A DNA stretch of 64,000 nt from Candidatus Omnitrophota bacterium (GTDB lineage Bacteria > Omnitrophota > Omnitrophia > JAHJGZ01), in assembly GCA_018823795.1 (NCBI GenBank), contig JAHJGZ010000132.1:21755-85754 (forward strand). Direction: 5' to 3'. Position 1 is the stretch's first letter; each line of letters begins with the position of its first letter. The position numbers and the translations under genes were made by a program. Positions 4,594 to 60,506 of the stretch are shown here, in pieces. The notes beneath the pieces were generated by a model. The model was given only the letters and a program-made list of their open reading frames with translations, was not told the DNA's origin and ran no database searches.

Positions 4594-7322
4594 TATTTTT
4601 TCTTCTGTTCGAGCACCGCTTGTGCCGCAGCTAAACGAGCGATAGGAACACGATACGGTGAGCAACTAACATAATTAAGCCCTATTTTAACAAAGAATTT
4701 TACCGATGCGGGATCGCCGCCATGTTCACCACAGACACCAATTTTGAGATTTTTACGCGTCGAACGCCCTCGATCGACGCCAATTTTGACCAATTGCCCT
4801 ACCCCTTCTATATCGATTGAAGCAAAAGGGTCATCCATGACAATTTTTTTATCAAGATAATCAGGCAAAAAACTTCCCACATCATCACGGCTGTACCCAA
4901 AGGTCATTTGTGTCAGGTCATTGGTACCAAATGAAAAGAATTCAGCTCGTTCTGCAACCGTATCAGCGACAAGGGTTGCACGAGGAATTTCAATCATGGT
5001 ACCGACGAGATAATGGATGTTCGCCTTTTTCACCTTAATAACTGCATCTGCTGTTTGACGCGTTAATTCTTCAAGAATATCAAACTCAGCTTTCGTTCCA
5101 ATAAGCGGAATCATAATTTCAGGAAGCACCGTTACTCCCTCCTCTGCGACATTACACGCGGCTTCAATAATAGCTTTCACTTGCATCGTACATATTTCCG
5201 GATAGGTAATCGAGAGACGACAGCCTCGGTGTCCTAACATCGGATTCATTTCGTGAAGACTCTCTACCTTCTTTTTTACCACCTCAGCTGTTGTTTTAAG
5301 CCGTTTTGCCATTTCTTCCTGTCCTTTTTCATCATGTGGAAGAAATTCATGAAGTGGTGGATCAAGTAAACGAATAGTCACGGGTAAACCATCCATTGCT
5401 TCAAAAATGCCTTCAAAATCCTGTCGTTGCAACGGTAAAAGTTTCTTCAATGCCTTCTCACGTCCCGCAAGGTCATTGGCAAGAATCATTTCCCGAACTG
5501 CCCAAATACGGTCACCTTCAAAAAACATATGTTCGGTACGACATAACCCGATCCCTTCTGCACCGAGCGCACGTGCAACCTGTGAATCTCGAGGTGAATC
5601 GGCATTGGTACGAACTTTGATTTTGCGCACTTTATCAGCCCACTTCATTACTTCAAGGAATATTATACATATCGGATGTTGCCGTGCTTTCTTATTGCCT
5701 TCAGCAATACCCGAAACAACTGGTGAAGAAGACGTACCTACATGGCCAAGGATAATTTCCCCTGTTGAACCATCAACTGAAATTTCATCACCCTCTTTAA
5801 CAATTTTGCTCCCCACGGTCATATTTTTTTTCGTGTAATCAATGTTAAGCGCGCCACACCCAACGACACAACATTTACCCCAGCCTCGCGCAACAACAGC
5901 TGCATGAGAAGTCATACCTCCGGTTGACGTTAAAATAGCCTGTGCTGCCCACATACCACTGACATCTTCAGGAGATGTTTCTTTTCTTACCAACATAACC
6001 TTTTTACCTTCCTGTGCCCAACGCACGGCATCATCCGCCGTAAATACAACGAGTCCATTCGCGGCACCAGGTCCTGCAGGGAGCCCCTTTGCAATTATCC
6101 GTTTTGCAGCAATAGCCGCCACTTTAGCCTTTGGATCAAGAATCGGAAAGAGAAGCTGGTTAAGATGATCCCCCTCAATCCTCTTGAGCCCCTCCTCTTC
6201 CGTAATGAGCTTTTCCTTTACCATATCCACGGCAATCTTCACTGCAGCAAGCCCCGTACGCTTGCCGGTCCGTGTTTGCAACATGAAAAGTTTCCCTTCC
6301 TGAATGGTAAATTCAATATCCTGCATATCCCGATAATGCTTTTCCAATTTATGACGAATAGTATCTAACTCTTTATAAATTTTGGGCATTCTCTTCTGCA
6401 AGGAGGCAATCTGTTCAGGAGTGCGAATACCAGCAACCACGTCCTCACCTTGTGCATTGATTAAATATTCACCAAAAAATTTATTTGTACCATCTGCTGG
6501 GTTACGGGTAAAACCAACCCCGGTCCCTGAATTCGACCCCATATTACCAAATACCATTGCTTGAACATTCACCGCAGTCCCTTTTAAGCCATGAAGTTTA
6601 TTAATATTGCGATAGGCAACAGCACGGGGAATATTCCATGAACCAATGACAGCATCTATGGCATAGCCAAGTTGTTCGCGGGCATCGGTTGGAAAATTTT
6701 TACCAACAGATTTTTTATATACCTTTTTATACGCGGCGACCACTTCCTTAAGTTCCTGAGTCTTTAAATCAGTATCTAGTTTGCGCTTGTATTTTTTCTT
6801 AATGCGTGTTAATTCGTGTTCAAAATACTCGTGATCAACCCCCATACACACATCACCAAACATATTAATAAAACGACGATATGAATCCCATGCCATACGT
6901 TCGTTTTTCGTCTTTTTCGTTAATCCGATAATCACATCGTCATTAATACCAAGGTTCAATACGGTGTCCATCATACCCGGCATCGAGACCGCAGCACCGC
7001 TACGAACTGACACGAGAAGCGGATTATCCTTATCCCCAAATTTCATTCCCATAGTTTTTTCAATTTTTTGGATATTACGTTCAATTTCTTTATCTAAACC
7101 GTCAGGCTTTTTCTTTCCGTGTGAATTGTAATATTCACATACATCGGTCGAAATGGTAAAACCGGGCGGCACCGGAACACCGATACTTGACATTTCCGCA
7201 AGATTAGCCCCTTTGCCACCTAATAATTCCTTCATTTTGGCGCTGCCTTCTGCTTTGCCGCCGCCAAAAAAATAAACGTATTTCTTTTTCTTCGCTGCTG
7301 ATTTCTTTGTGCTCTTACTCAT
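4593..7322 (-). CDS. ppdK: pyruvate, phosphate dikinase
   Basis: 909 aa with the phosphohistidine loop GGMTSHAAVVARGWG, GLCRTEHMF and CGEHGGDP. Confidence 0.95.
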   Translation of the reverse strand: MSKSTKKSAAKKKKYVYFFGGGKAEGSAKMKELLGGKGANLAEMSSIGVPVPPGFTISTDVCEYYNSHGKKKPDGLDKEIERNIQKIEKTMGMKFGDKDNPLLVSVRSGAAVSMPGMMDTVLNLGINDDVIIGLTKKTKNERMAWDSYRRFINMFGDVCMGVDHEYFEHELTRIKKKYKRKLDTDLKTQELKEVVAAYKKVYKKSVGKNFPTDAREQLGYAIDAVIGSWNIPRAVAYRNINKLHGLKGTAVNVQAMVFGNMGSNSGTGVGFTRNPADGTNKFFGEYLINAQGEDVVAGIRTPEQIASLQKRMPKIYKELDTIRHKLEKHYRDMQDIEFTIQEGKLFMLQTRTGKRTGLAAVKIAVDMVKEKLITEEEGLKRIEGDHLNQLLFPILDPKAKVAAIAAKRIIAKGLPAGPGAANGLVVFTADDAVRWAQEGKKVMLVRKETSPEDVSGMWAAQAILTSTGGMTSHAAVVARGWGKCCVVGCGALNIDYTKKNMTVGSKIVKEGDEISVDGSTGEIILGHVGTSSSPVVSGIAEGNKKARQHPICIIFLEVMKWADKVRKIKVRTNADSPRDSQVARALGAEGIGLCRTEHMFFEGDRIWAVREMILANDLAGREKALKKLLPLQRQDFEGIFEAMDGLPVTIRLLDPPLHEFLPHDEKGQEEMAKRLKTTAEVVKKKVESLHEMNPMLGHRGCRLSITYPEICTMQVKAIIEAACNVAEEGVTVLPEIMIPLIGTKAEFDILEELTRQTADAVIKVKKANIHYLVGTMIEIPRATLVADTVAERAEFFSFGTNDLTQMTFGYSRDDVGSFLPDYLDKKIVMDDPFASIDIEGVGQLVKIGVDRGRSTRKNLKIGVCGEHGGDPASVKFFVKIGLNYVSCSPYRVPIARLAAAQAVLEQKKK

Positions 7323-15005: not shown

Positions 15006-15564
15006 TATCGATAAAAGTAATCCATACAGTAACTTTCACTGCTTGCGGAATGGATTGTTGATCCTCAGCAGACCACGTATCCTTCCATACTATTGATTCA
15101 TCAGTTTCGCTAAAAAAACCATACTGAAATGAAATATTCTTAAGATACGACGGAAGGATGTTCGTTTTTGTCTCCTTTTCATTCTTGCGGGATAGTGATT
15201 TTTCTTTTTTAACTAACTTTTTTGAAGCAAAGGTATATTCAATATGAACGAAATCGTCACATTTATTATCTTTCGTATATCTTCCTAATACCGCAGGGAA
15301 TGACATACTCGTTTTCTTGCCTTCGAAAGGCACAGAAGAATATTGAACAGCATTTCGTAATTCACGTGAAATTGAATTTAAAAAATGAGTTGTTCTATGA
15401 TAGGACGACAGTCCTACCTCCCCTCGCTTATAGAGCATAAGACCACTTTGCAGAGCAAGATATAAACTTGAACTGACTACTAAAAATAACGTTATAGCGA
15501 GCAGAAATTCTATGAGAGTAAACCCCGTTAGAGTGCGTCCATGTGTATTATAGTTTTCTCTCAT
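14920..15564 (-). CDS. gspJ: prepilin-type pseudopilin (GspJ-like)
   Basis: The leader MRENYNTHGRTLTG precedes FTLIEFLLAITLFLVV, the prepilin cleavage/methylation motif. Confidence 0.7.
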   Translation of the reverse strand: MRENYNTHGRTLTGFTLIEFLLAITLFLVVSSSLYLALQSGLMLYKRGEVGLSSYHRTTHFLNSISRELRNAVQYSSVPFEGKKTSMSFPAVLGRYTKDNKCDDFVHIEYTFASKKLVKKEKSLSRKNEKETKTNILPSYLKNISFQYGFFSETDESIVWKDTWSAEDQQSIPQAVKVTVWITFIDNGRGEKGDKTIEKKIWIPHGQWGREENT

Positions 15565-15630
15565 ATGTAGGCTCTTACTATCTCGTTAACGTATTGAATA
15601 TCTTTTTTGATAGTTATTCTCTAACGGGGT
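15522..15630 (-). promoter_or_regulatory. 5' UTR / coding inverted repeat enclosing the gspJ-like start codon
   Basis: Plus-strand ctctaacggggt (15619-30) and accccgttagag (15522-33) are perfect 12-nt complements. The lower arm encodes TLTG-F. Confidence 0.6.
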
Positions 15631-15665
15631 AAATCCAGCCCTAAATTTTATTGCAGATGCTTTCA

Positions 15666-16091
15666 TTAATTACCTTTTTCTCTGAGGGCATGAAATGTTT
15701 CAACATCAAATACTGTATTGTCATTAAGCAAAATATACGTGGTCGCTTTTTTATAGGATACTGTTGTTGCTTCAGAACTAACGTCTCCTTTGTCGGTACC
15801 GCCATCTTCGTTGCCACGAGACAAAGCAACATCATCCCATTCATATTGATATGAGTATTCCTTACGTACGGTAAGGTTTTTATTATTAAACTTTTTCTTT
15901 CCTTTTGTTACGATCATCTGTTTTGCTAATTTTGGTGTAGTAAAAAGTTCGAATAAACAATCAGAAGCTATTAAACGTACATCGAAATATTCTTGTGAAC
16001 GTTTTGTTATTTCTATAATATGCCGGAATGCCTGAAGAGAAGCGGTAATGCCAATCGATAGAATAAGAATAGCCAGTAATACTTCAAACAA
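15666..16091 (-). CDS. gspI: GspI-like pseudopilin, body separated from its leader by a frameshift
   Basis: (L)FEVLLAILILSIGITASLQAF is a prepilin hydrophobic helix. The ATG at 16134 encodes MRRLPLLKQKK, and an A9 run (plus-strand T9, 16101-09) puts it out of frame. Confidence 0.65.
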   Translation of the reverse strand: MFEVLLAILILSIGITASLQAFRHIIEITKRSQEYFDVRLIASDCLFELFTTPKLAKQMIVTKGKKKFNNKNLTVRKEYSYQYEWDDVALSRGNEDGGTDKGDVSSEATTVSYKKATTYILLNDNTVFDVETFHALREKGN

Positions 16092-16181
16092 TAAAATACC
16101 TTTTTTTTTGTTTTAAAAGAGGTAATCGTCTCATAGCATCATGCTTTTTGTATTATCGGTCTATACATAATCAATATACTA

Positions 16182-16685
16182 TTATTCCCGAAAGGTTACT
16201 TTCAAACCAAATAAGTAGCCTGGTATTGTAAATGATACTGTTTGATCATTATTGTAACAAATTGAAAATTGGGCAATTGTTGATGAACCATCGGGAAAGA
16301 AAAAAATTTCATCGGACGTCAAATCAGAAAGTTCCATGTTTTTGGGTAATCGTATTGAAAAGGAACCTTTTCCTGTAATCTTCTCAAATTCCTCTTTCTT
16401 ATCCTGTTTCTGTTGACTAAAAAGAGAAAAGCGTTTTTCTTCTCTTTCTATAGACATTTTATACACAGTCCCATCCAGCACAGGGCTCTGCTGAGCATAG
16501 TGAATTAATTTTTCAATCTTTTCTATAGTGCTATGGAGTTCATAATTAAAAAAAAGAACGCCAACGCGAGGAATAACGAGGCCGGTAAAGATACTTATTA
16601 ATAATACAACAAGTAATATTTCAATTAACGTGAATCCCGTTAGAGTGCGTCCGTTAGTAGAATGTGCCATTTTAAGAGTAAGCAT
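16182..16685 (-). CDS. gspH: prepilin-type pseudopilin (GspH-like)
   Basis: GRTLTG precedes FTLIEILLVVLLISIF; 167 aa. Confidence 0.7.
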   Translation of the reverse strand: MLTLKMAHSTNGRTLTGFTLIEILLVVLLISIFTGLVIPRVGVLFFNYELHSTIEKIEKLIHYAQQSPVLDGTVYKMSIEREEKRFSLFSQQKQDKKEEFEKITGKGSFSIRLPKNMELSDLTSDEIFFFPDGSSTIAQFSICYNNDQTVSFTIPGYLFGLKVTFRE

Positions 16686-16743
16686 TTCGTATCACATATG
16701 TTATTTTTATAACCTTTTTTCACCGTTTTTTCTCTAACGGGGT
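16634..16743 (-). promoter_or_regulatory. 5' UTR / coding inverted repeat enclosing the gspH-like start codon
   Basis: ctctaacggggt (16732-43) against atcccgttagag (16634-45), 11 of 12 complementary. Confidence 0.55.
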
Positions 16744-16829
16744 GAACCCGGTGGAACGCTTTTTAAATAGCCTTTTACGTATTATCACAATATAACTATT
16801 GAATAATGTATCAATTTACGAACAACCCC

Positions 16830-17276
16830 TTAGTCAGTATCCCAATTAGAAATATCATCCGCTGTTCCTTCTTGCCCATCTGACCCACGAGAACTTAGAT
16901 CGTAGGAAGCGGTATTATTAATCCCTGGATACTTGTAACTATATTCATTTCCCCATGGGTCTTTCGGAAGTCTTCTTTTTACATACGGGCCACGCCAATT
17001 CTTGACTGAACCAGGATCCGTAATTAAATCTTCTAACCGCGCAGGATAGGTACCGGTATCGAGTTCATATAAATCAAGGGCTGCACCAATGCCGCCATGA
17101 ATATCCGCCATCGCTCCTTCGCGACGCGCCTCTTCTCCCCGCCCTACCATATTTGGAATAACCAGTCCTGCTAAAATACCAATAATAAGAACAACTAATA
17201 AAATTTCTATTAACGTGAACCCCGATAGAGAGCGACGCGTAAATAACTTTTTACGTAATAATAACTTAATCGGCAT
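16830..17276 (-). CDS. gspG: major pseudopilin GspG
   Basis: MPIKLLLRKKLFTRRSLSG precedes FTLIEILLVVLIIGILAGLVIPN, and the C-terminus has GSDGQEGTADDISNW. The ORF-track N-terminal extension to 17375 is translation of the inverted repeat, not coding sequence. Confidence 0.85.
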   Translation of the reverse strand: MPIKLLLRKKLFTRRSLSGFTLIEILLVVLIIGILAGLVIPNMVGRGEEARREGAMADIHGGIGAALDLYELDTGTYPARLEDLITDPGSVKNWRGPYVKRRLPKDPWGNEYSYKYPGINNTASYDLSSRGSDGQEGTADDISNWDTD

Positions 17277-18953: not shown

Positions 18954-19151
18954 CTAGACAAGTTTAATAGTATAGTCATCCCCATTCTTTATAACATTCA
19001 CATGTCCTTCTCGAGCTAACCATCCTAAACTCATTAATATTAAATCATGTGGCGCATCAATTTCTTTAAGCACTTCTTTAAGAATGACAGGAGATTTTTT
19101 GTCCAAAACATGTAATATGTCACCTGCAGTAATACCAATTTCTGTAATCAT
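18954..19151 (-). CDS. small winged-helix protein (DUF2582-like)
   Basis: ITAGDILHVLDKK..LSLGWLAREGHV. I moved the start to the ATG at 19151, 7 nt after an AAGGAGG SD. Confidence 0.65.
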   Translation of the reverse strand: MITEIGITAGDILHVLDKKSPVILKEVLKEIDAPHDLILMSLGWLAREGHVNVIKNGDDYTIKLV

Positions 19152-19334
19152 AGAGACCTCCTTGTTGCATGAGCACATGATTTATGGAGTATATTGTACG
19201 ACATAAATCATATCTGCGAATTCAACCCAGCACTAATTTTTAATTCACTCTTTTTATCAAAAATTAGCGCATTGATTTTAGTATATCTATTTAGAATTCA
19301 CCCACAACTAATTCAAAAAAGATTAGTGCTGGGT
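19152..19334 (-). repeat. intergenic module copy 1 (long P1, TGAATTCG linker, P2, SD)
   Basis: P2 spans 19177-19211 (atgatttatg...cataaatcat). P1 arms are acccagcactaat (19225-37) and attagtgctgggt (19322-34). Confidence 0.75.
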
Positions 19335-19365
19335 AAATTCAAACTTATACCTTATCTTCACCTTC

Positions 19366-19404
19366 GCCCGCCTGCCGCCTGCCGGACAAGCAGGGACGGG
19401 CAGG
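19366..19404. repeat. GC-rich palindrome just after the exbD stop
   Basis: gcccgcctgccgcctgccggacaagcagggacgggcagg shares the CCTGCC/GGCAGG core with the other copies. Confidence 0.65.
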
Positions 19405-19425
19405 TTCGCTAAGGTATGTTTTCAT

Positions 19426-19812
19426 TTAGGTATCCGTTCGTATATTAATTTCTTTAAGCTTATATTTACGGGCAAAATCCCACACCTTAATAACAGAACC
19501 AAAAGGGGTATCTTTATCCGCAACGATCGCCACTTTCCCTTTTTCCATCGCTTTAAATATTTTATGTAAGTCGGAAAACATAATATATTTATCATCTAAA
19601 AACAACTCGCTATCTTTCGTAATAGTAATGGTGACAATAGTATCATGAACAGCCTGACTGGTTTGCGCTCGAGGCAATTTCACTTTAATGTTCGTCGTAT
19701 AGACAAAGCGAGATGACAGCATGAAAAATATTAATAAAAGAAAAACAACATCGATTAATGGTGTGATATCGGGTCTGAGCTGGGCCTTTTGAATTTCGTG
19801 ACGAAATTTCAT
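19426..19812 (-). CDS. exbD: biopolymer transport protein ExbD/TolR
   Basis: 128 aa with ITPLIDVVFLLLIFFM. Confidence 0.85.
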   Translation of the reverse strand: MKFRHEIQKAQLRPDITPLIDVVFLLLIFFMLSSRFVYTTNIKVKLPRAQTSQAVHDTIVTITITKDSELFLDDKYIMFSDLHKIFKAMEKGKVAIVADKDTPFGSVIKVWDFARKYKLKEINIRTDT

Positions 19813-25649: not shown

Positions 25650-25800
25650 CTTTTTACTCCTTTAATGAGCAGATACTTTACGAAGCATAATATGCGACGT
25701 AAAGCATAGGCCGCTCGGCCGTCTGTGAATTAAACCCCCACACCAATTATCTTAAATAGCTCGTTCTTTATACATACCCCTCACACAATTGGTGTGGGGG
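25650..25800 (-). repeat. intergenic module copy 2 (P1, TTTAATTCA linker, small hairpin, P2, SD of panD)
   Basis: P2 spans 25673-25707. The 14-bp P1 arms are cccccacaccaatt (25735-48) and aattggtgtggggg (25787-800). Confidence 0.75.
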
Positions 25801-25851
25801 TAAGTTCCGACATTACATTTTAGTTTCGCTTTTGCCCATCCATTCCTAACT

Positions 25852-25875
25852 GCTGTCAGGCAGGCGGCGGGCAGC
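25852..25875. repeat. GC-rich palindrome just after the panC stop
   Basis: gctgtcaggcaggcggcgggcagc ends 3 nt from the panC stop codon. Confidence 0.55.
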
Positions 25876-25878
25876 TCA

Positions 25879-26727
25879 CTAAAATGTATCGTCACTTACT
25901 ATAATATTATCAATTAACCTGGTTTTTCCGACATATGCCGCCACACCAACAAACAACTTCCCTTGTATTGTTTCAACATAGTCAAAGTTTTCTGCTCCCA
26001 AAATTGCAATATAATCAATCTTATCCACCTGTTCTTCTATTTTTTTTTTCATCTGAGAAATAATCGCTTGTGGATCTTTTTCTCCTGCTTTTATACATGT
26101 GCGCGCTACAGAAAGTGACTGATAGAGTGATAATGCGCGCACCCGTTCTTGTTGATTTAAATAAACGTTACGGGAACTCATGGCAAGGCCATCATCTTCA
26201 CGCACAATCGGACATACTTTCAACTGTACGGGAATATTCAGGTCCCGTACCATCTGTTGTATAATTAAAAACTGCTGATAATCTTTTTGCCCAAAATACG
26301 CATAATCGGGAAGTACACTATTGAACAACTTACACACAACGGTTGCAACACCTTGAAAATGCCCCGGTCGGGACACGCCGCATAAAAGTTCAGAAAGCTT
26401 GCCGATTTTAATACTGCTTAAAAATGGTGATGGATACATATCGTCAAGCGAAGGACAGAAAATATAATCGACTTTTTCACCTCGCGCATCTTGACAATCC
26501 TTTTTCAAATTCCTCGGATACTGCCTATAATCTTCTTCTGGGCCAAATTGTGTAGGATTAACAAATATGCTGACGATAACAACATCATTTTCTTTCCGCG
26601 CATAACGCATCAAACTCAAATGCCCTTTATGAAAACATCCCATAGTCGGCACAAAACCAATGCGTTTGCCTTTTTTCCTCTGGATCGCTACTATTTTCCG
26701 TAATTGAGCAATAGTTTTAATAACCAT
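25879..26727 (-). CDS. panC: pantoate--beta-alanine ligase
   Basis: 282 aa with PTMGCFHKGHLSL (the HIGH-type motif). Confidence 0.92.
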   Translation of the reverse strand: MVIKTIAQLRKIVAIQRKKGKRIGFVPTMGCFHKGHLSLMRYARKENDVVIVSIFVNPTQFGPEEDYRQYPRNLKKDCQDARGEKVDYIFCPSLDDMYPSPFLSSIKIGKLSELLCGVSRPGHFQGVATVVCKLFNSVLPDYAYFGQKDYQQFLIIQQMVRDLNIPVQLKVCPIVREDDGLAMSSRNVYLNQQERVRALSLYQSLSVARTCIKAGEKDPQAIISQMKKKIEEQVDKIDYIAILGAENFDYVETIQGKLFVGVAAYVGKTRLIDNIIVSDDTF

Positions 26728-44455: not shown

Positions 44456-44875
44456 CTATCGTCCGTATGGGCTGTAGCCGCCTCGGCTGTCACCTCGACC
44501 ACGACCGCCGCCGCCGCCGCCTCGATTGCCACCGCCACCGCCTCGGCTGTCACTTCGACCACGACCACCGCCGCCGCCACGTGAATAGCCACCACCACTA
44601 CGCGGAGGTCGCGACTCTTTTGCCCGTGCCTGGCTTACATTCAATGTCCGTCCACCAAGCTCCTGCCCGTTCGCAGCATCAATTGCTTTCTGGACATCCT
44701 CTGAAGAAGAAAGTTCAATAAAACCAAACCCTTTTGAGCGGTCCGTATATCGATCTTTTACTACGGTTACTGCTGTGACCGTAATGCCTTTTTCTTCAAA
44801 AAAATTATTGAGTTGCTCTTCGGTTACTTCATAACTCAAATTTCCGACATATACCTTATTAGCTGCATCAGACAT
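44456..44875 (-). CDS. RRM-type RNA-binding protein with RGG/Gly-rich tail
   Basis: RNP2 is VYVGNL and RNP1 is KGFGFIEL. The C-terminal tail is (RGGGGG)n. Confidence 0.9.
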   Translation of the reverse strand: MSDAANKVYVGNLSYEVTEEQLNNFFEEKGITVTAVTVVKDRYTDRSKGFGFIELSSSEDVQKAIDAANGQELGGRTLNVSQARAKESRPPRSGGGYSRGGGGGRGRSDSRGGGGGNRGGGGGGRGRGDSRGGYSPYGR

Positions 44876-46992: not shown

Positions 46993-47077
46993 CGTAGGTC
47001 CTTTCTTTTATACGAATACTTACCGATTTTCACCCGTTTATTATATACCGGGGCTTCCAAAAAACAACACACTTTTT

Positions 47078-47160
47078 TTAATGAGCACGTACTTTACGGA
47101 GTTTGAAGAACGACGTAAAGTACTTTGCGAATTAATACTTTGCCAGCTAGCTGGCAAAGT
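47078..47160 (-). repeat. intergenic module copy 3 (P1 perfect palindrome, linker, P2)
   Basis: P2 spans 47089-47123 (gtactttacg...cgtaaagtac). The linker is gcgaattaat. P1 is actttgccagctagctggcaaagt (47137-60). Confidence 0.75.
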
Positions 47161-51005: not shown

Positions 51006-51689
51006 TTATTTAACCGGCTCAATCTCTTCAGTAAGAGCGGTCCATGGCCAATCACCGTTGAAAGGATACCCAGGATTATCAGGGTGGTTCGGCACAAGAC
51101 AGGTAAAAATTTCACCGAATCCGTATAAGGATCGGCTAAACCAAAACCATACCCCTTTACCAAGGCCTTTTACTGCATTGCCATCTGAAACACCACGCAT
51201 GGTCTGCCCCGGAAGTTCAGCAATACCCGTAAAACCGTTTGCAATACCATGAGCGAGTTTACGTCCAATCGGTGCGACCCCTTCTTTCAGACTTGGTTTA
51301 AAAAGACTATACTGTTCCCCTTCTTGCCACGAATACTGTCCGTCAAACGGCACGCCGATCCCTTCATTATCTTCAGGATTAGCAGCCCAAAAACCAAAGA
51401 GTTCCATGCCACCGCCAGCAATGCGGCCGGCAGTATGACCAAAGCCGCGGAAAATTCCGAGAATCGTTCCGACAGTTTTTGATCCGGCTGTATTTTCAAT
51501 CGGACCAAATCCACCTTTGTACCCTTTGATAATCTGCATCGGCAATTCGACAATACCGGTCACCATATCGACAGCACCGCGTATCGCCTTCTTCCCCATC
51601 CCTTCCGGGATGTTTTCAGTCGCTGCATATGCAACAGACGTGCAGCATACCATCGCAACGACTACAAAAAACACCATTGCTTTTTTCAT
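51006..51689 (-). CDS. secreted protein with two TIGR04073-like (exosortase-system-associated) repeats
   Basis: Signal peptide. KKAIRGAVDMVTGIVELPMQI and RKLAHGIANGFTGIAELPGQT each precede a G..E.F....P...P tail. The family assignment is from memory. Confidence 0.55.
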   Translation of the reverse strand: MKKAMVFFVVVAMVCCTSVAYAATENIPEGMGKKAIRGAVDMVTGIVELPMQIIKGYKGGFGPIENTAGSKTVGTILGIFRGFGHTAGRIAGGGMELFGFWAANPEDNEGIGVPFDGQYSWQEGEQYSLFKPSLKEGVAPIGRKLAHGIANGFTGIAELPGQTMRGVSDGNAVKGLGKGVWFWFSRSLYGFGEIFTCLVPNHPDNPGYPFNGDWPWTALTEEIEPVK

Positions 51690-51800
51690 CTGACTCCTCC
51701 TTTAAATGAGGCCATGATTTATGGAGTCAACATGACGACATAAATCATCTGGCCGAATTAATCCCTGCCGCTTTGCTTCGCTCGGCGAAGAAGGCGGGGA
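51690..51800 (-). repeat. intergenic module copy 4 (P1, ATTAATTC linker, P2, SD)
   Basis: P2 spans 51714-51748 and is closed by ggcc/ggcc. The linker is gaattaat (51755-62) and P1 spans 51763-51799. Confidence 0.8.
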
Positions 51801-51832
51801 CAATGAAACGATTACAATCCCGTCCTTCTTTA

Positions 51833-52021
51833 CTATTCCTTTTTCTTACAACACGGGCATACTGACAATGCAATTGCCAGGAGAAGAACACTATTGGCAA
51901 GGGCCAAAATACCTCCCGGAAATACTACATAGCCAGCAATGGCAAGCGGAATTCCGCTCACCCGTAATACGAGTGCCAGAGCGATACACACCGCACCAAT
52001 AATAATAATTATTTTTTGCAT
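51833..52021 (-). CDS. small two-TM membrane protein ending CPCCKKKE
   Basis: 62-aa hydrophobic ORF. A GGAGGC SD is supplied by the upstream module. Confidence 0.5.
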   Translation of the reverse strand: MQKIIIIIGAVCIALALVLRVSGIPLAIAGYVVFPGGILALANSVLLLAIALSVCPCCKKKE

Positions 52022-52150
52022 GTTAGCCTCCGTTTTATGAGGCCATGACTTACGGAATCTGAAAGACGACGTAAGTCATCTGGCCGAATTAATCCCTGCC
52101 GCTTTGCTTCGCCGGACTGCCGTTAGGCAGACGAGCGAAACAGGCAGGGG
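52022..52150 (-). repeat. intergenic module copy 5 (branched P1, ATTAATTC linker, P2, SD)
   Basis: P2 spans 52045-52079 (atgacttacg...cgtaagtcat) and the linker spans 52086-93. P1 spans 52094-52150 and contains a nested ctgcc/ggcag hairpin. Confidence 0.8.
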
Positions 52151-52203
52151 CAATGATGCATATAGAGAATTTACTGACCCACTAAATCAGAATTATTACT
52201 TCC

Positions 52204-52325
52204 CCCGTCTCGAAAAACTGTCGCAAAATTATTAAAAGGAATTTTGCGACTCTCGACGGGATAAATTCCTGCCTACCGGCAGGCAGGCAGCCAACAAACT
52301 TACGTTATTTCATTCCGTAAGTTTG
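52204..52325 (-). repeat. cluster of three further hairpins in the same intergenic region
   Basis: A long hairpin at 52204-52260 (cccgtc../..gacggg and gtcgcaaaat/attttgcgac), a GC palindrome at 52268-87, and a P2-like hairpin at 52295-52325. Confidence 0.7.
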
Positions 52326-52329
52326 GGCT

Positions 52330-52464
52330 TCATTTAACTTTACCCGATGCTGGATTATAGCCTGTGGCCTTTTGTACCTGCCCGGGTGCACACCATTTCT
52401 TCATCGGACACTGACAACCACTCAGTAGAATTCCGAGTAATAGTAATGCAACGAGTTTGCGCAT
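52330..52464 (-). CDS. small lipoprotein (44 aa)
   Basis: MRKLVALLLLGILLSGC lipobox, with a GAGAGGAGAA SD before the ATG at 52464. The longer ORF-track version (to 52653) overlaps the upstream gene. Confidence 0.55.
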   Translation of the reverse strand: MRKLVALLLLGILLSGCQCPMKKWCAPGQVQKATGYNPASGKVK

Positions 52465-52856: not shown

Positions 52857-53049
52857 ATGAGGACGTGATTATAGCATAGGACGGATAGCGAAGAAAGACA
52901 ATTGTCTCCCCAGAATTAATCGTCTGCACTATATCCCGATTAGACAATACTTGGTGTGCTGTCTAACGGGATATATTCCGACTTATTACTTATGAAGTCT
53001 GCTTACAGATTTCATAAGTGATGTCGTCATGTAAAGAAAAAAGACTTTC

Positions 53050-53070
53050 GCCTACTGCCGGCAGGCAGGC
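53050..53070. repeat. GC-rich palindrome 3 nt after the MCP stop
   Basis: gcctactgccggcaggcaggc contains the perfect palindrome ctgccggcag. Confidence 0.65.
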
Positions 53071-57886: not shown

Positions 57887-58003
57887 GGTAACCTCATTTT
57901 AATGAGCGCATAATTTATGGAGTGCCTGCCTACCGACAGGCAGGCGTAGCACGACATAAATTATTTGCGCGAATTAATCCCTTAAGGCGAAGCCTTATAG
58001 GGA
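57887..58003 (-). repeat. intergenic module copy 6 (P2 carries a nested GC palindrome)
   Basis: P2 spans 57910-57964 and carries gcctgcctaccgacaggcaggc (57924-45) in its loop. The linker is gaattaat (57971-78) and P1 spans 57979-58003. Confidence 0.8.
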
Positions 58004-58289: not shown

Positions 58290-58514
58290 TTAGATAATCA
58301 TTTCCAGGTTTCTTTTAATGGCATCTGCCTTATCAGGCGCAACACGATTATAATGTACGATAAGACTCTCTATGATCGCAGGCAATTTAGCCTGATCAAT
58401 GAGCTGGGAATTTACTCCTCGTGCCGCGCACACTTGATAAACAGTAGTGCACACATCTGTTGGAACAAGGGGCGCTATTGCCCGTATTAATTGCTGGTAA
58501 TATCCGCTCTCTAT
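58290..58514 (-). pseudogene. third copy of the 75-aa partner protein, lacking an in-frame ATG
   Basis: My translation, (I)ESGYYQQLIRAIAPLVPTDVCTTVYQVCAARGVNSQLIDQAKLPAIIESLIVHYNRVAPDKADAIKRNLEMII*, is paralogous to 59701..59928 and 59972..60202. The nearby ATG is 1 nt out of frame. Confidence 0.6.
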
Positions 58515-58558
58515 CCATATGAAACTCCGGCCATATGTTTTGATGAAAAACGGTACCC

Positions 58559-58837
58559 TTACAGCGCCATTTTAAAACTGTTTCCTTCTTCATCTTTAAC
58601 TTTAAGAAAAAAATCACAGGTCATGCAACTGCGTTTATCTTGTGCAAACGTACCTTTTTTTTTCTCTTTACAGAACGTTCCTGCAATAAGCCAGCAGATT
58701 CTCCCCGCATTCGTGCCGCCATTTATTCCATCGCTTGTTTTGTTTGAGGCTGCAGGACAGACACCGAGTTTTTTCACCTTCTGCCCGCCGATACCCCTTC
58801 CACATCTTTTAAATTCCCAACAATTTTCTTTCATCAT
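58559..58837 (-). CDS. Cys-rich 'two-CW' protein, copy 2
   Basis: MMKENCWEFKRCGRG...GRICWLIAGTFC...CMTCDFF, paralogous to 60234..60506. The start is probably the ATG at 58837 or 58834. Confidence 0.75.
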   Translation of the reverse strand: MMKENCWEFKRCGRGIGGQKVKKLGVCPAASNKTSDGINGGTNAGRICWLIAGTFCKEKKKGTFAQDKRSCMTCDFFLKVKDEEGNSFKMAL

Positions 58838-58976
58838 ACTATTCATCCCCTTTCATTTTCATAATGCCCCCAGCCTTCTGATATGTTTTTTCTCTCGTGG
58901 CTTCCAAATGCTATCCTGTACGTATCATTACAATACAACATAACAAATGTATTTGTAGGTCGTGGGCAAAAAAAAT

Positions 58977-59297
58977 TTACCAAGCTACTTCTTGGTTTTG
59001 ATTACGATACACCGCACATTTATTTCTTTCGCGCGGTTTGCACTTTTTGATCTCCCAACACGGTTTCTTTAACATGAGCTCTCTGACCCCTGCCAGATTA
59101 ATCCTTTTCTGCTGAACCATTTCTTTAATAAACTTCAACTTCCCCAAGTCACAGCGGGAGTAATATCTATTCTTCCCAAGGCGAGCCGGTTTAATTAAGC
59201 CTTTATGCTCCCAAATTCTCAGCGTAGCTAAACACACCTCTAAAAGATGAGCAACGATACCAATCGTATAAACCGGTTTATTATCATGATGTTCCAT
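58977..59297 (-). CDS. MerR-family HTH regulator with C-terminal CWEIKKC..C motif
   Basis: The MerR HTH reads YTIGIVAHLLEVCLATLRIWEHKGLIKP and the C-terminus reads KKPCWEIKKCKPRERNKC. Confidence 0.8.
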   Translation of the reverse strand: MEHHDNKPVYTIGIVAHLLEVCLATLRIWEHKGLIKPARLGKNRYYSRCDLGKLKFIKEMVQQKRINLAGVRELMLKKPCWEIKKCKPRERNKCAVYRNQNQEVAW

Positions 59298-59508
59298 TTT
59301 TTCTCCTCACCGTTATTCAACAGATAAAGACTACCACCTCAAAACGTTGTTGTCAAGTAACCTATAAAGAGCATTATTAGATGCCGTTTTTTTGATATTT
59401 CTGTATGAGTAGATTGTTCAACCGATGGCAGGAAAAAACATGCTCTGAATGATATAAACAGGTATGTACCATTCGAAAAAAATTCTCATCACTGCCGGCA
59501 GTGTAGGC

Positions 59509-59700
59509 GGCCATATAACTTTGATCGTTCATTTACCCCTGCCTGCTTCTCAAACCGAAGCAATGCGGCAGGGATTAATTCGGCCATATGACTTTGATCG
59601 TTCATTTACCCCTGCCTGCTTCTCAAACCGAAGCAATGCGGCAGGGATTAATTCGGCCATATGACTTACGTTCGCTCTACTCCGTAAGCCATGGCCTCAT
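59509..59700 (+). repeat. intergenic module copy 7: two 73-bp tandem units plus a terminal P2, in plus-sense orientation
   Basis: The units span 59509-59581 and 59582-59654 and differ by a single base by eye (59517 a vs 59590 g). The terminal P2 spans 59661-59692 and is followed by ggcctcattta. Confidence 0.8.
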
Positions 59701-59928
59701 TTATTCTATCATATCCAACGTCTCTTTTATGGCATCGACCTTATCAGCCACAAAAATTTTATAATGTACGAGCAGTCCCTGTTTAATAACGGATAAGTTT
59801 TCTTGCGAAATATTTTCGACATGTATCTTATTCCTGCGGCAGACTCGAGAAATCGTGGTACATACATCTGTTGCACAAATAGGGGATATCGCTTTCACCA
59901 GCCGAACATAATATGAATTTTCTTCCAT
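59701..59928 (-). CDS. 75-aa partner protein, copy 2
   Basis: MEENSYYVRLVKAISPICATDVCTTISRVC...ENISQENLSVIKQGLLVHYK, a paralog of 59972..60202. Confidence 0.7.
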   Translation of the reverse strand: MEENSYYVRLVKAISPICATDVCTTISRVCRRNKIHVENISQENLSVIKQGLLVHYKIFVADKVDAIKETLDMIE

Positions 59929-59971
59929 TCTCTGATCCTTTGCTCAAGTATGAATCTTTCGGCATGAACTG

Positions 59972-60202
59972 CTATACGACAGTATTGAGTTTTGTTTTAA
60001 TCATCTCCATTTTATTAGCTAAAAAGTTTTTATAGTGTTCTACAATACCGCTTTTAATCATCGGTAAATCTTCTTTTGATATATTTTCGACATTCAACCC
60101 GTTTTCTTTACACACAGCATACACGGTAGTACCGACACCGACTGAAATGATTGGGGAAAGCGCTTTCACTAATTGGATATAATAGGTATTGGTAATAGCC
60201 AT
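59972..60202 (-). CDS. 75-aa partner protein, copy 1
   Basis: MAITNTYYIQLVKALSPIISVGVGTTVYAVC...ENISKEDLPMIKSGIVEHYK, starting 31 nt after the two-CW gene. Confidence 0.7.
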   Translation of the reverse strand: MAITNTYYIQLVKALSPIISVGVGTTVYAVCKENGLNVENISKEDLPMIKSGIVEHYKNFLANKMEMIKTKLNTVV

Positions 60203-60233
60203 GGTTTCACAACGATATATGCGTACGGGTCTT

Positions 60234-60506
60234 TTACGTCATTTTAAAATCGGTTCCTTCTTCTTTTTTTACTTTGACGAAAAAATCACAGGTCATACAG
60301 GTCTGTTTCTTTTGTGCAAAAGTACCCTGCCGTTGCCCGCCACCAAACGTACCGGCAACAAGCCAGCACATTCTTCCTGCATTCTCGCCGCCATTTATTC
60401 CATTACAGGCAACGAACTTGGTAACCGGACACGCACCTAATTCATCTATCTTGTTCCCGCCTTTTCCTCGTCCGCATTTTTTAAACTCCCAGCAATTCTC
60501 TTTCAT
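60234..60506 (-). CDS. Cys-rich 'two-CW' protein, copy 1
   Basis: MKENCWEFKKCGRGKGG...GRMCWLVAGTF...CMTCDFF. A GAGGAGAG SD precedes the ATG. Confidence 0.8.
   Translation of the reverse strand: MKENCWEFKKCGRGKGGNKIDELGACPVTKFVACNGINGGENAGRMCWLVAGTFGGGQRQGTFAQKKQTCMTCDFFVKVKKEEGTDFKMT

Follow-up and report, generated by a model that had tools for sequence, protein, structure and literature searches.

The structured intergenic modules in the stretch of DNA analyzed here (64,000 nt from a Candidatus Omnitrophota bacterium; hereafter the window) were interpreted as arms, paired or solo, of a larger three-hairpin mobile unit, and they are probably non-autonomous mobile DNA of a REPIN-like kind, with a minimal GIY-YIG nuclease as partner; a dedicated riboregulator was not the favored reading of the P2 modules. 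The complete unit was composed of, in order, an inverted P2 hairpin (tail TTWAATGAG outward), a P1 hairpin (CCC...GGG), and a second P2 hairpin (tail CTCATTWAA outward), and the P1 loop of its full-length ('master') copies held a 75–80 aa GIY-YIG nuclease gene (seven independent loci; see below). The copies in the 64-kb window were gene-less derivatives only: the window contained no GIY-YIG gene, which counts against the proposed partnership, and no GIY-YIG remnants were detected by tblastn in the P1 loops of the window. A first-pass annotation had offered two readings: (i) a cis-acting RNA element controlling translation or stability, which was not supported as its primary character, and (ii) a REP/BIME-like mobile palindrome family, which was essentially right, with the unit being an inverted P2 doublet around P1 as in REPINs.

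That annotation had called for a covariance-model search and an Rfam search. A covariance model of P2 (R1), run with filters off, gave 10 P2 matches in the window (E = 2e-15 to 0.05) and recovered copies in other Omnitrophota. All the copies listed earlier existed in the sequence, with P2 matches on the minus strand at 51698–51765 (copy 4; 77.6 bits, E = 1.8e-15), 57894–57981 (73.2 bits), 52029–52096 (copy 5; 71.3 bits), 47073–47139 (68.6 bits), 19161–19228 (67.1 bits), and 25657–25737 (39.3 bits) and on the plus strand at 59644–59708 (56.5 bits); R1 added three inverted ones on the plus strand at 52968–53038 (47.6 bits), 52288–52331 (partial; 33 bits), and 19337–19425 (degenerate; 20.3 bits). 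The layout described before, P1 followed by (A/T)TTAATTC, P2, and CTCATTWAA, was correct.

Copy 4 (minus strand) contained a P1 hairpin CCCCGCC...GGCAGGG (51763..51799; 'class B', without GIY-type arms) and, as read from the sequence and R1, a P2 hairpin with linker and tail (51701..51762), of which the linker ATTAATTC was located at 51755–51762 and the tail CTCATTTAAA at 51701–51710; its Shine-Dalgarno (SD) sequence (CCTCC on the plus strand) and start codon were found at 51696–51700 and 51687–51689, respectively. Copy 4 formed both P1 and P2 in its minimum-free-energy fold (z = -3.1). A complementarity between the conserved ACUCC of P2 and the SD had been proposed: CUCC did match GGAG, but nothing more did, and the copy 4 P2 stayed closed in that fold. 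Copy 5 (52029..52150, minus strand) was composed of P2 (52029–52096) plus P1 (52094–52150) and lay upstream of a gene for a 62-aa membrane protein. The inverted partial-P2 region (52203..52331, plus strand) displayed a class-A P1 GAATTTAT-CCCGTCGAGAGTCGC... (about 52203–52262), a nested GC mini-hairpin (52268–52288), and the P2 part (52288–52331), within whose tail was the TGA stop of the open reading frame (ORF) ending at 52330. Two tails-outward doublets were recognized in the window, at 19.2–19.4 kb and 52.86–53.04 kb. The latter (52857..53038) was composed of P2 on the plus strand (52968–53038), P1 CCCGTTAGACA...TGTCTAATCGGG, and a decayed partner P2 on the minus strand (52857–52925), and about 36 nt separated the tail of its plus-strand P2 from the stop (53074) of a methyl-accepting chemotaxis protein gene; the degenerate module reported near 52857–52974 was thus present, not as a separate module but as the decayed partner arm of 52968–53038.

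The 19.2–19.4-kb doublet was a complete three-hairpin element (19161..19428) occupying the whole exbD/DUF2582 junction: P2 with linker and tail (19165–19225, minus strand), P1 with GIY-type arms CCCAGCACTAAT and ATTAGTGCTGGG (19226–19333), and a degenerate P2 with a nested GC hairpin inside (19337–19425, plus strand), with the exbD stop TAA at 19426–19428; folded as DNA, it had z = -6.5. The true start of the gene downstream is likely ATG at 19149–19151. In-frame ATGs supplied by the repeat are spurious and lead gene callers astray, e.g., at 19178 (likely real start 19151). The element between panC and panD (25657..25878, minus strand) contained P2 with an additional hairpin at its bulge (25661–25734), P1 CCCCCACACCAATT...AATTGGTGTGGGGG (25735–25800), and a decayed stop-proximal arm (25808–25878) directly after the panC stop TAG (25879–25881). 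Two solo arms were located on the minus strand: (i) 47073..47160, with P2 (47077–47136) and a palindromic P1 (47137–47160), had no SD after it, the next gene starting about 85 nt downstream, and (ii) 57894..58002, with P1 at 57979–58002, lay upstream of a cNMP-binding protein gene and had a 22-nt GC hairpin (57924–57945) nested within its P2 loop. The inverted copy 59508..59708 (plus strand) carried a 73-nt tandem duplication (59508–59580 and 59581–59653, 99% identical) spanning P1 together with the 5′ half of P2; after it came a shortened P2 (59644–59708) whose tail adjoined the stop (59701) of a convergent 75-aa ORF. An SD and start codon had been described directly after the tail of each module, but they proved not to belong to the repeat: the 47-kb and 59-kb copies were without them, and some copies abutted stop codons or tRNA 3′ ends.

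The P2 hairpin was under structural constraint. Compensatory stem changes, already claimed for the window copies, were verified (in the seven copies, at 12 of 23 pairs) and were confirmed on 113 P2 copies (2,349 cells), with 500 shuffles and slid pairings as controls: 97.6% of the cells were paired, compared to 31–43% in the slid controls, and double-changed cells numbered 410, compared to 130 in shuffles (0/500). The UC/UC internal loop was kept in 113/113 copies, as had been described, and a second UC/UC loop was found between linker and tail in 109/113 copies, so the linker pairs with the tail. The 113-copy consensus ended in AATTC / TCATT. An asymmetry favoring G-U in the sense strand over A-C on the other strand, noted in the window, was not general: G-U and A-C occurred 25 and 26 times among the 2,349 cells, and 13 and 15 times in the 60 sense-transcribed arms. 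The P2 loop and bulge accepted nested hairpins (in the window, e.g., the 25-kb and 57-kb copies), which fits recognition of the stem rather than a linear duplex spacing. The G-U/A-C parity and the nested hairpins were taken as support for a constraint on P2 at the DNA level rather than the RNA level. Each hairpin evolved by internal compensation, and the two P2 arms of one element were not copies of each other.

Several candidate features of P1 and P2 were tried and rejected: (i) a C(UUCG)G tetraloop as an RNA signature at the frequent apex CACTTCGTG, which was actually a C-UUC-G triloop (C-GAA-G on the other strand); (ii) a promoter within P2, the distance of whose candidate hexamers varied with loop length (6–27 nt); (iii) a boxA-like tail (GCUCAUUAA), compared with the rrn boxA GCUCUUUAA, in which only UCAUU was conserved and the 'GC' was part of a covarying 4-bp box; (iv) a K-turn, the tandem GA pairs having no adjoining 3-nt bulge; and (v) a switch in which the P1 5′ flank (GAAYTTR) competes with the tail for the linker, for which there was no matching covariation, this flank being the linker of the inverted partner P2.

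Folding z-scores of -3.1 and -6.5 are among the points in favor of an improbable alternative, in which P2 plus P1 is primarily a host-serving RNA (an intercistronic 5′ stabilizer, a translation enhancer, a processing site resembling an RNase III substrate, about 24 bp long and with internal loops, or a terminator) and mobility is incidental or ancient. It is opposed at the hairpin itself by the lack of a G-U excess, sense-transcribed arms included, and by the transcribed sense hairpin being the less stable strand (-20.8 versus -25.6 kcal/mol). It is also opposed by the Rfam results, in line with the earlier statement that no named RNA family could be matched: the whole window had no match at gathering score, and a search by E-value on 51600–52250 gave chance-level matches only (mir-15_2, SAM_alpha, and sR38; 14–18 bits compared to gathering scores of 36–80). 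As for a terminator, no P1 or P2 hairpin was among the consensus terminator matches in 45–64 kb, and P1 and P2 were followed by (A/T)TTAATTC and CTCATTWAA, respectively, with no U tract of the intrinsic-terminator type.

The P2 pattern scan identified at least 110 stretches from about 90 assemblies, almost all from Candidatus Omnitrophota, and one P2 consensus was kept phylum-wide; such sequence conservation is unusual for REP or MITE families and counts for a host-serving RNA. P2 density was about one per 6–13 kb across the sequence examined. A viral origin was rejected, with no match to the P2 element in 2.9 million viral contigs. Insertion took place in the short gap, a few nucleotides long, that separates a stop codon or tRNA 3′ end from the SD of the next gene, and orthologous core-operon junctions differed in the presence or absence of the element, which counts against a host-serving RNA: (i) the panC/panD junction was 229 nt in the window but only 14 nt in L138 and 42 nt in L139, its closest relatives, L138 having the same HPPK–panC–panD–nadA synteny as the window; (ii) the infC/rpmI junction was 11 nt in one genome but 180 or 205 nt in two others; and (iii) two adjacent junctions differed reciprocally between L066 and L080 (38 versus 185 nt and 148 versus 32 nt), the neighboring proteins being about 87–90% identical. 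By PanC, the best relatives were only 62–64% identical; placing the window in Omnitrophota by sequence therefore relied on the repeat itself and on protein matches of 48–59% to Omnitrophota loci. The empty panC/panD junctions already had AGGAG 3–4 nt past the stop codon; with the SD already at empty orthologous sites, the element does not donate it, and the earlier suggestion of a family donating ribosome-binding sites fails at this point.

The placement of copies relative to genes bears on the same alternative from both sides; it was scored with crude longest-ORF gene calls at loci ascertained by a strict P2 pattern. In most sense copies, the hairpin ended 0–5 nt before the SD, with the start codon a median of 16 nt past the matched core; strict-consensus copies favored the sense strand of the gene by 61:18; and the SD-proximal arms of doublets were better preserved than the stop-proximal ones (71.8 versus 57.8 bits; Wilcoxon p = 3e-4), all of which count in favor of a host-serving RNA. 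The sense bias and the SD-proximal preservation together hint at host-level or transcript-level selection. Against this, the covariance model assigned 44 junctions as sense-only, 28 as antisense-only, and 18 as double, so that the gene-orientation preference proposed earlier held as a mild bias, with both orientations common; copies were also found after tRNA genes and at convergent gene ends, and the genes downstream of copies were functionally unrelated.

The reading as mobile arms was further supported by doublet geometry: among 166 model matches in 716 kb, 36 tails-outward inverted pairs were found, compared to three tails-inward pairs and 11 tandem ones. P1 and P2 were near-identical within one genome, as in the 51-kb, 52-kb, and 59-kb copies of the window and the LacPavin MAG copies, and tandem duplications occurred too. 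No flanking direct repeat was seen at 38 doublets (36 from related loci and two from the window), giving no sign of a target-site duplication or defined target, a point against this reading.

The GIY-YIG gene was recognized in P2-flanked copies at L033, L038, L053, L072, L112, L124, and L134. In pattern-ascertained loci, 5/5 ORFs of this GIY-YIG subfamily were inside P1 (Pfam PF01541, E = 3e-9 to 7e-15): those of L033, L038, L053, and L072 lay between a detected P2 pair, and L041 had P2 detected on one side only. Three more Omnitrophota-type copies, retrieved by protein identity alone, served as an independent test: L124 and L134 displayed P2 on both flanks (E = 3e-16 to 1e-10), and at L112 the gene was flanked by a clear P2 (56.4 bits, E = 7e-11) and a degenerate one (13.9 bits, E = 0.63). 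All P2 pairs with 257–262-nt spacers contained the GIY-YIG ORF. The gene was co-oriented with the surrounding host genes, was found at different junctions in different genomes, and encoded a GIY-YIG catalytic domain only (75–80 aa), with Y3, Y5, Y16, G18, R26, H30, E43, and E55 invariant in 31 homologues. Gene-bearing and gene-less copies shared both the P1 arms, e.g., CCCAGCACTAATTTT, and the P2 hairpins around them; the 19-kb copy of the window had these arms.

The P2 doublets might instead be mobile through another enzyme (Y1/RAYT or unknown), with the GIY-YIG gene and its CCCAGCAC arms being a homing element in its own right, aimed at the P1 position between P2 arms, which we consider unlikely. 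Homing and repair are the classical roles of GIY-YIG nucleases, and the present one being a catalytic domain only accords with that alternative, as do three further observations: orthologous P2 copies could have different P1 hairpins (L020 versus L056), indicating P1 turnover beside a conserved P2; many P1 hairpins were of class B (including that of copy 4) and had no sequence in common with the gene-flanking arms; and Patescibacteria-type copies had the same gene and arms with different flanking hairpins, undetected by the P2 model. P1 and its gene could accordingly be a separate parasite of P2 doublets. Yet among the loci examined, no other gene type was found inside P2 doublets and no Y1 (IS200/IS605-type) gene was flanked by the repeats; the 257–262-nt spacers were all GIY-YIG, the Omnitrophota-type copies found by protein identity all had P2 on at least one flank (L124 and L134 on both), and a gene between inverted repeats is exactly the RAYT/REP arrangement.

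Some other DNA signal, such as integron attC-like sites, DNA-uptake sequences, or protein-bound duplex operators, was judged very improbable. Folded-strand features (conserved mismatches and bulge) recall attC, type IV pilin-like proteins (GFTLIE N-termini) are encoded in the window, and the repeat is abundant and conserved in sequence; the covariation, however, indicates selection on structure and not on sequence alone. The attC cores RYYYAAC/GTTRRRY were absent from the consensus, and the copies were inverted doublets in core operons rather than co-oriented cassette arrays; a duplex-binding dimer with fixed half-site spacing was ruled out by the variable loop length and nested hairpins.

If the modules are REPIN-like DNA partnered with the GIY-YIG nuclease, the nuclease would act in trans, recognizing P2 when it is folded as a hairpin, either in single-stranded DNA or by extrusion. 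The likely identity marks are the helix CTTAYG/CRTAAG, the 5′ bulge, and the two tandem TC·TC mismatches (GA·GA on the other strand). Cleavage at P2 would start copying of the cassette to new intergenic sites through host repair or replication, as proposed for RAYTs and REPINs; compensatory changes would maintain the foldability of each hairpin, and arms would decay afterwards, leaving singletons such as 51690–51800. In transcribed copies, a stable hairpin would lie immediately 5′ of the SD or 3′ of a stop, and a secondary effect on mRNA stability or translation is possible. GIY-YIG enzymes are hydrolytic nucleases that are not known to have strand-transfer activity, which counts against this proposal at the integration step. 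The broader claim, of a mobile DNA class not described before, in which three-hairpin repeats are propagated by a nuclease of about 78 aa reading folded hairpins marked by TC·TC / GA·GA, Omnitrophota-wide and with relatives in Patescibacteria, is put forward tentatively, as a serious possibility short of a probable one.

The full-text literature contained no description found by us of this three-hairpin/GIY-YIG repeat in Omnitrophota, and the system appears to be undescribed. REP/REPIN-RAYT has so far been the model case of a nuclease that coexists with a hairpin-repeat population of its own; if the proposal is true, this strategy would have evolved at least twice with unrelated enzymes (GIY-YIG and RAYT). 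Part of the large UPF0213-like family of stand-alone GIY-YIG proteins would then have its first function, and thousands of orphan 75–110 aa GIY-YIG proteins would have a testable substrate (a profile search with the nuclease gave 1,317 cluster representatives at E ≤ 1e-10, most of them 75–110 aa). For annotation, the repeat fills stop-to-SD spacers within core operons; for expression, many transcripts of this little-studied phylum, whose genomes are streamlined, come to carry very stable hairpins.

Among known systems, Seg proteins and I-TevI bind DNA through a C-terminal domain, and each has a single cognate site, while the Omnitrophota protein is a catalytic domain only, and its gene, unlike seg, is embedded in structured repeats that also occur as many gene-less copies per genome. 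The T4 Seg genes (e.g., SegB in the tRNA cluster) are alike in that a GIY-YIG gene lies between conserved operon genes, co-oriented with its neighbors and patchy among relatives (PMC2330249), and the catalytic motifs are conserved as in free-standing GIY-YIG homing endonucleases (PF01541). Stand-alone UPF0213/YhbQ-like GIY-YIG proteins (PDB 1ZG2, BH0048) are the same in size and domain content, with marginal sequence similarity (1ZG2 was the best solved-structure match, a weak one at E = 0.011), and no description of a function or repeat association for this family was found in the literature. MITEs and the Correia, ERIC, RUP, and BOX elements are likewise non-autonomous intergenic repeats with inverted symmetry, and MITEs and nested palindromes are co-transcribed with their neighbors and have stop codons at their ends (PMC10969869, PMC3184786). 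The Omnitrophota element shares with MITEs the terminal inverted repeats common to gene-bearing copies, but it differs in lacking both a relative among IS-type transposases and a detectable target-site duplication, and in the internal compensation of each hairpin; its parent gene encodes a nuclease domain and not a known transposase.

REPs have a conserved GTAG-type 5′ tetranucleotide adjoining the palindrome, which was absent from the 113-copy consensus of the Omnitrophota element. The two systems (REP/REPIN-RAYT as known from Pseudomonas fluorescens SBW25 and Escherichia coli) are alike in (i) short extragenic imperfect palindromes of high copy number, (ii) a replicative unit that is an inverted doublet, with hairpins in ssDNA or mRNA, (iii) singlets that are decayed doublets, together with tandem arrays, and (iv) a nuclease gene that itself lies between inverted repeats (Bertels & Rainey 2011, PMC3116915). 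They differ in that the gene flanked in RAYTs encodes an IS200/IS605-type Y1 (HUH) transposase, while that of the Omnitrophota element encodes a 75–80 aa GIY-YIG domain and changes its junction between genomes; moreover, the Omnitrophota element has an additional middle hairpin P1 directly embracing the gene, its P2 contains two invariant tandem TC·TC mismatches, and its P2 consensus extends phylum-wide, while a REP consensus belongs to one species group.

The module at 51690-51800 lay on the minus strand as the first-pass annotation had described it: a GC-rich hairpin P1 (CCCCGCC...GGCAGGG), the linker ATTAATTC, the hairpin P2 (GGCC-AG-ATGATTTATG-TC-GT-loop-AC-TC-CATAAATCAT-GGCC) and the tail TCATTTAAA, followed by GGAGG and ATG. 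The other listed copies were recovered with a repeat finder and a regular expression, and a covariance model of P2 (R1) gave ten P2 copies in the window, where at least 7 modules had been counted. The P2 hairpin itself stood, but its described extent was too short: in the consensus fold of seven aligned window copies (23 pairs, 12 compensatory, in agreement with the paired stem changes noted earlier), base pairs between the linker (TTAAT) and the tail (ATTAA) extended the stem past a further UC/UC internal loop; P2 therefore comprised ~24 bp, interrupted by a pair of identical pyrimidine loops (2x2) and, on its 5' side, by a bulge of 1-3 nt. Across an alignment of 113 P2 copies, standard pairs made up 97.6% of 2,349 cells, and double-sided changes occupied 410 cells versus 130 +/- 9 after shuffling (a level as high as observed came up in 0/500 shuffles); with the partner shifted by 1-3 columns, pairing fell to 31-43%. 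The internal loop reported as conserved was invariant at its inner TC/TC position (113/113) and nearly so at the outer one (109/113). The Rfam search of the window gave no match at the gathering score and only chance-level matches at a relaxed threshold.

In related loci fetched from other genomes, R1 matched 166 P2 copies in 716 kb, and neighbouring copies were overwhelmingly minus-then-plus with tails outward (36 pairs, versus 3 tails-inward and 11 tandem). The motif GAAYTTR, found 5' of many P1 hairpins, was the linker of an inverted partner P2; given this and the tails-outward pairing, the complete unit is inverted P2, P1 and P2, and the module first described is half of it. The two P2 arms within one element were not copies of one another, each hairpin keeping its own complementarity. 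The element at 19 kb filled the exbD/DUF2582 junction entirely, with the exbD stop TAA directly before the ATGA of one tail and the Shine-Dalgarno sequence (SD) after the other tail, and folded as DNA with z = -6.5. At 52.86-53.04 kb, a well-kept inverted arm adjoined the stop of a methyl-accepting chemotaxis (MCP) gene; the degenerate copy reported here did exist, not as a separate copy but as the decayed partner of this arm. The copy at 51690-51800 was a solo arm.

Insertion polymorphism was evident in the fetched loci, many orthologous adjacent gene pairs varying in spacer length. Loci L066 and L080 (neighbouring proteins ~87-90% identical) differed reciprocally in length at two adjacent junctions (38 versus 185 nt and 148 versus 32 nt), the element beginning right at the stop codon in both cases. 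The infC/rpmI junction measured 11 nt in L013 and, with the element, 180 nt in L068 and 205 nt in L076; the panC/panD junction measured 229 nt in the window versus 14 and 42 nt, element-free, in the two relatives with the closest PanC (62-64% identity), of which L138 (14 nt) displayed the same HPPK-panC-panD-nadA synteny as the window. Both element-free relatives had AGGAG 3-4 nt past the panC stop, so the SD is ancestral rather than donated: of the earlier proposal of a REP/BIME-like mobile palindrome that donates ribosome-binding sites, the first half agreed with the inverted doublets and filled/empty junctions, while the second half was not supported. The tail stands directly before the SD because the element is squeezed into a gap only a few nucleotides long, and the same tight packing accounts for convergent genes terminating within the tail (14/30 cases; TTAAATGA supplies TAA and TGA) and for the tail overlapping the 3' ends of opposite-strand tRNA genes, three consecutive times in L039. 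Recent copying was further indicated by P1 and P2 sequences that are nearly identical between the copies at 51k, 52k and 59k, and likewise between copies of one lake MAG, by a 73-nt tandem duplication (99% identical) at 59508-59653, and by tandem arrays of the element in L008 and L025. No target duplication was seen at the element ends.

Strict-pattern copies with co-directional flanking genes lay in sense versus antisense at 61:18, and model-based junction counts gave 44 sense-only, 28 antisense-only and 18 with both arms. For 26 doublets between co-directional genes in related loci, the SD-side arm scored 71.8 bits versus 57.8 bits for the stop-side arm and was the higher in 18/26 (Wilcoxon p = 3e-4), an effect of uncertain size because these data, like the orientation counts, used crude longest-ORF gene calls and loci each ascertained via one strict match. 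A better-kept SD-side arm was also listed for the window doublet 19161-19425. The asymmetry may reflect selection on transcripts, possibly a gain from a hairpin 5' of the SD or else harm by a very stable GA/GA hairpin directly after a stop, or it may be a bias in arm decay. P2 has in-frame ATGs (TCATG), and longest-ORF calls therefore begin inside the repeat: the DUF2582 gene was called from 19178, its SD-preceded start being 19151, and many downstream ORFs in related loci seem to start 9 nt inside the tail. These P2-internal ATGs are an annotation hazard for Omnitrophota MAGs.

RNA-selected structure is normally far more tolerant of G-U than of A-C. The G-U versus A-C asymmetry noted earlier in favor of the sense RNA disappeared in the 113-copy alignment (G-U 25 cells, A-C 26, G-U being not commoner), and 60 arms in the sense of both flanking genes had 13 G-U and 15 A-C. 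A primary riboregulatory role was the least supported reading, though a transcribed element probably affects its mRNA in a secondary way. The opposite strand of P2 had GA/GA where the sense strand had TC/TC, plus C-GAA-G apices, and folding predicted it to be more stable than the sense strand in 102/109 copies (-25.6 versus -20.8 kcal/mol with RNA parameters; -14.4 versus -13.5 with DNA parameters). The P2 loop ranged from 6 to 27 nt, an entire extra hairpin was nested in the P2 loop of the 57.9k copy, and another stood at the P2 bulge in the 25k copy and in L076 and L112. Variable loop length and nested hairpins excluded a duplex operator whose half-sites lie a constant distance apart, and fit a stem that is recognised in its folded form.

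A second, smaller GC-rich palindrome, GCCTGCC-TGYCGGTA-GGCAGGC (exact pattern: 3 matches versus 0 expected), was nested in other hairpins: in the P2 loop of the 57.9k copy (57924-57945) and beside a partial P2 at 52.3k (52268-52288), with similar palindromes inside decayed arms (~19383-19419 and ~25850-25872) and just past the MCP gene stop (~53049-53067). The P1 hairpins of the 51k, 52k and 59k copies (CCCCTGCC...GGCAGGG) resembled it. The window further contained (i) at 58290-60506, minus strand, small paralogous genes forming an array (repeat families D1 and D4) and comprising Cys-rich proteins of 90 and 95 aa (58559-58846 and 60234-60506; N-terminus M..ENCWEFK(R/K)CGRG), three paralogues of 54-76 aa (58290-58454, 59701-59928 and 59972-60202) and a MerR-family protein (58977-59297; Pfam MerR_1, E 2e-16) with the same CWEIKKC motif at its C-terminus, the small proteins having no Pfam match; (ii) at 15493-17234, minus strand, three paralogous ORFs (families D10 and D12), putative type IV pilin or pseudopilin genes by their prepilin-type N-terminus ..RTLTGFTLIE..; and (iii) at 44467-44597, a tandem 18-21 nt GC-rich coding repeat of CCGCC/CCACC units (families D3 and D5) within a 139-aa ORF (44456-44875, minus strand), the predicted product stretch being Gly/Arg-rich and low-complexity.

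When one genome of each species was scanned for the exact pattern AATTC-N8-11-YTTAYGTCGY-N4-12-RHTYCRTAAR, at least 110 stretches matched, whereas by our estimate chance would account for around ten over the entire collection. The roughly 90 assemblies among the matches listed were nearly all labelled Candidatus Omnitrophota or Omnitrophica, and a few Planctomycetia, 'bacterium' or Scalindua; by these matches the element is phylum-wide in Omnitrophota. The same pattern had no match in 2.9 million viral contigs. Six P2 copies lay within 2 kb (5218-7023) of L085 (MAYW01000026, labelled Candidatus Scalindua rubra), a contig placed with an anammox planctomycete, owing either to mis-binning of an Omnitrophota contig or to transfer across phyla; L043, labelled Methanobacteriota, is a 2-kb contig.

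At five loci, the P1 arms (e.g. CCCAGCACTAATTTT ... AAAATTAGTGCTGGG) enclosed ~250 nt, versus 10-100 nt otherwise, and each insert was an ORF of 76-113 aa matching Pfam GIY-YIG (PF01541, E 3e-9 to 7e-15); four of the five were P2 pairs with 257-262 nt spacers. A protein search found 58 homologues (44-100% identity), with Omnitrophota, Candidatus Velamenicoccus archaeovorus and Patescibacteria/Parcubacteria as named sources. Further gene-bearing contigs were chosen by protein identity only, independent of P2, and in the three Omnitrophota-type loci so chosen the gene again lay within CCCAGCAC arms: (i) between V-ATPase D and I in L112, with a single clear P2 (56.4 bits) plus a degenerate arm (13.9 bits, E 0.63), (ii) between fabF and acpP in L124, and (iii) upstream of dnaK in L134, the latter two with P2 on both flanks (E 3e-16 to 1e-10). 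Patescibacteria-type loci (L113, ruvB/yebC; L118, ssb/rpsR; L127; L133) kept the arms and had different flanking hairpins, one locus keeping the GTCG...CTCC apex. The gene was co-oriented with its host neighbours at every locus where orientation could be judged. The residues invariant across 31 homologues (Y3, V4, Y5, Y16, G18, R26, H30, Y41, E43 and E55) were the GIY-YIG catalytic set, with no additional domain; the closest solved structure was orphan UPF0213 protein BH0048 (1ZG2, E 0.011), and a profile search gave 1,317 cluster representatives at E<=1e-10, mostly of 75-110 aa. The 64-kb window had no GIY-YIG gene of this kind. A more distant GIY-YIG ORF in L058 (3780-4340; 41% identity to the L033 protein) lay outside P1/P2 amid 5' tRNA-gene fragments that recur three times (ttcGGGGCGTAGCG...), which suggests a different insertion habit for this related nuclease. 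In L021, L023, L045, L068 and L083, P1 hairpins that lack the gene and have arms CCC(N)CACCTTTT shared, between different genomes, a loop remnant ..TTGAATA(N3)AAAAGGTG, which may be a relic of the lost gene or a conserved signal.

The parallel in anatomy with REPIN/RAYT systems (RAYT, REP-associated tyrosine transposase) favors a reading of the element as non-autonomous mobile DNA, with the GIY-YIG nuclease acting in trans and P2 as its recognition structure. The nuclease would interact with P2, its substrate being perhaps single-stranded or cruciform DNA. To our knowledge, GIY-YIG enzymes only hydrolyse DNA, so integration would have to use host repair or replication, which would also be the copying route. 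A serious alternative is that the gene and its arms form a separate homing element in the P1 position of P2 doublets moved by something else: P1 turned over beside a conserved P2 (L020 versus L056), and many P1 hairpins, including 51763-51799, had no similarity to the gene-flanking arms.

Full-text literature searches found no description of this repeat, nor of stand-alone GIY-YIG proteins tied to hairpin repeats; one paper simply names a GIY-YIG gene as one of several putative transfers out of Patescibacteria into other bacteria. Like REPIN/RAYT (Bertels & Rainey 2011, PMC3116915), the mobile-DNA candidate described here had inverted doublets that fold, decaying singlets and tandem arrays, together with a nuclease gene carrying inverted repeats on its flanks; unlike REPIN/RAYT, its enzyme was a minimal GIY-YIG domain, its repeat had a third hairpin embracing the gene, and one P2 consensus extended across the whole phylum Omnitrophota. 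The gene-bearing loci did not have the defining transposase family, nor the 113-copy P2 consensus the GTAG motif, and the element is therefore not a REP/RAYT member. Nuclease-associated hairpin repeats are a known kind, of which we rate the Omnitrophota version a new variant, apart from REP/RAYT.
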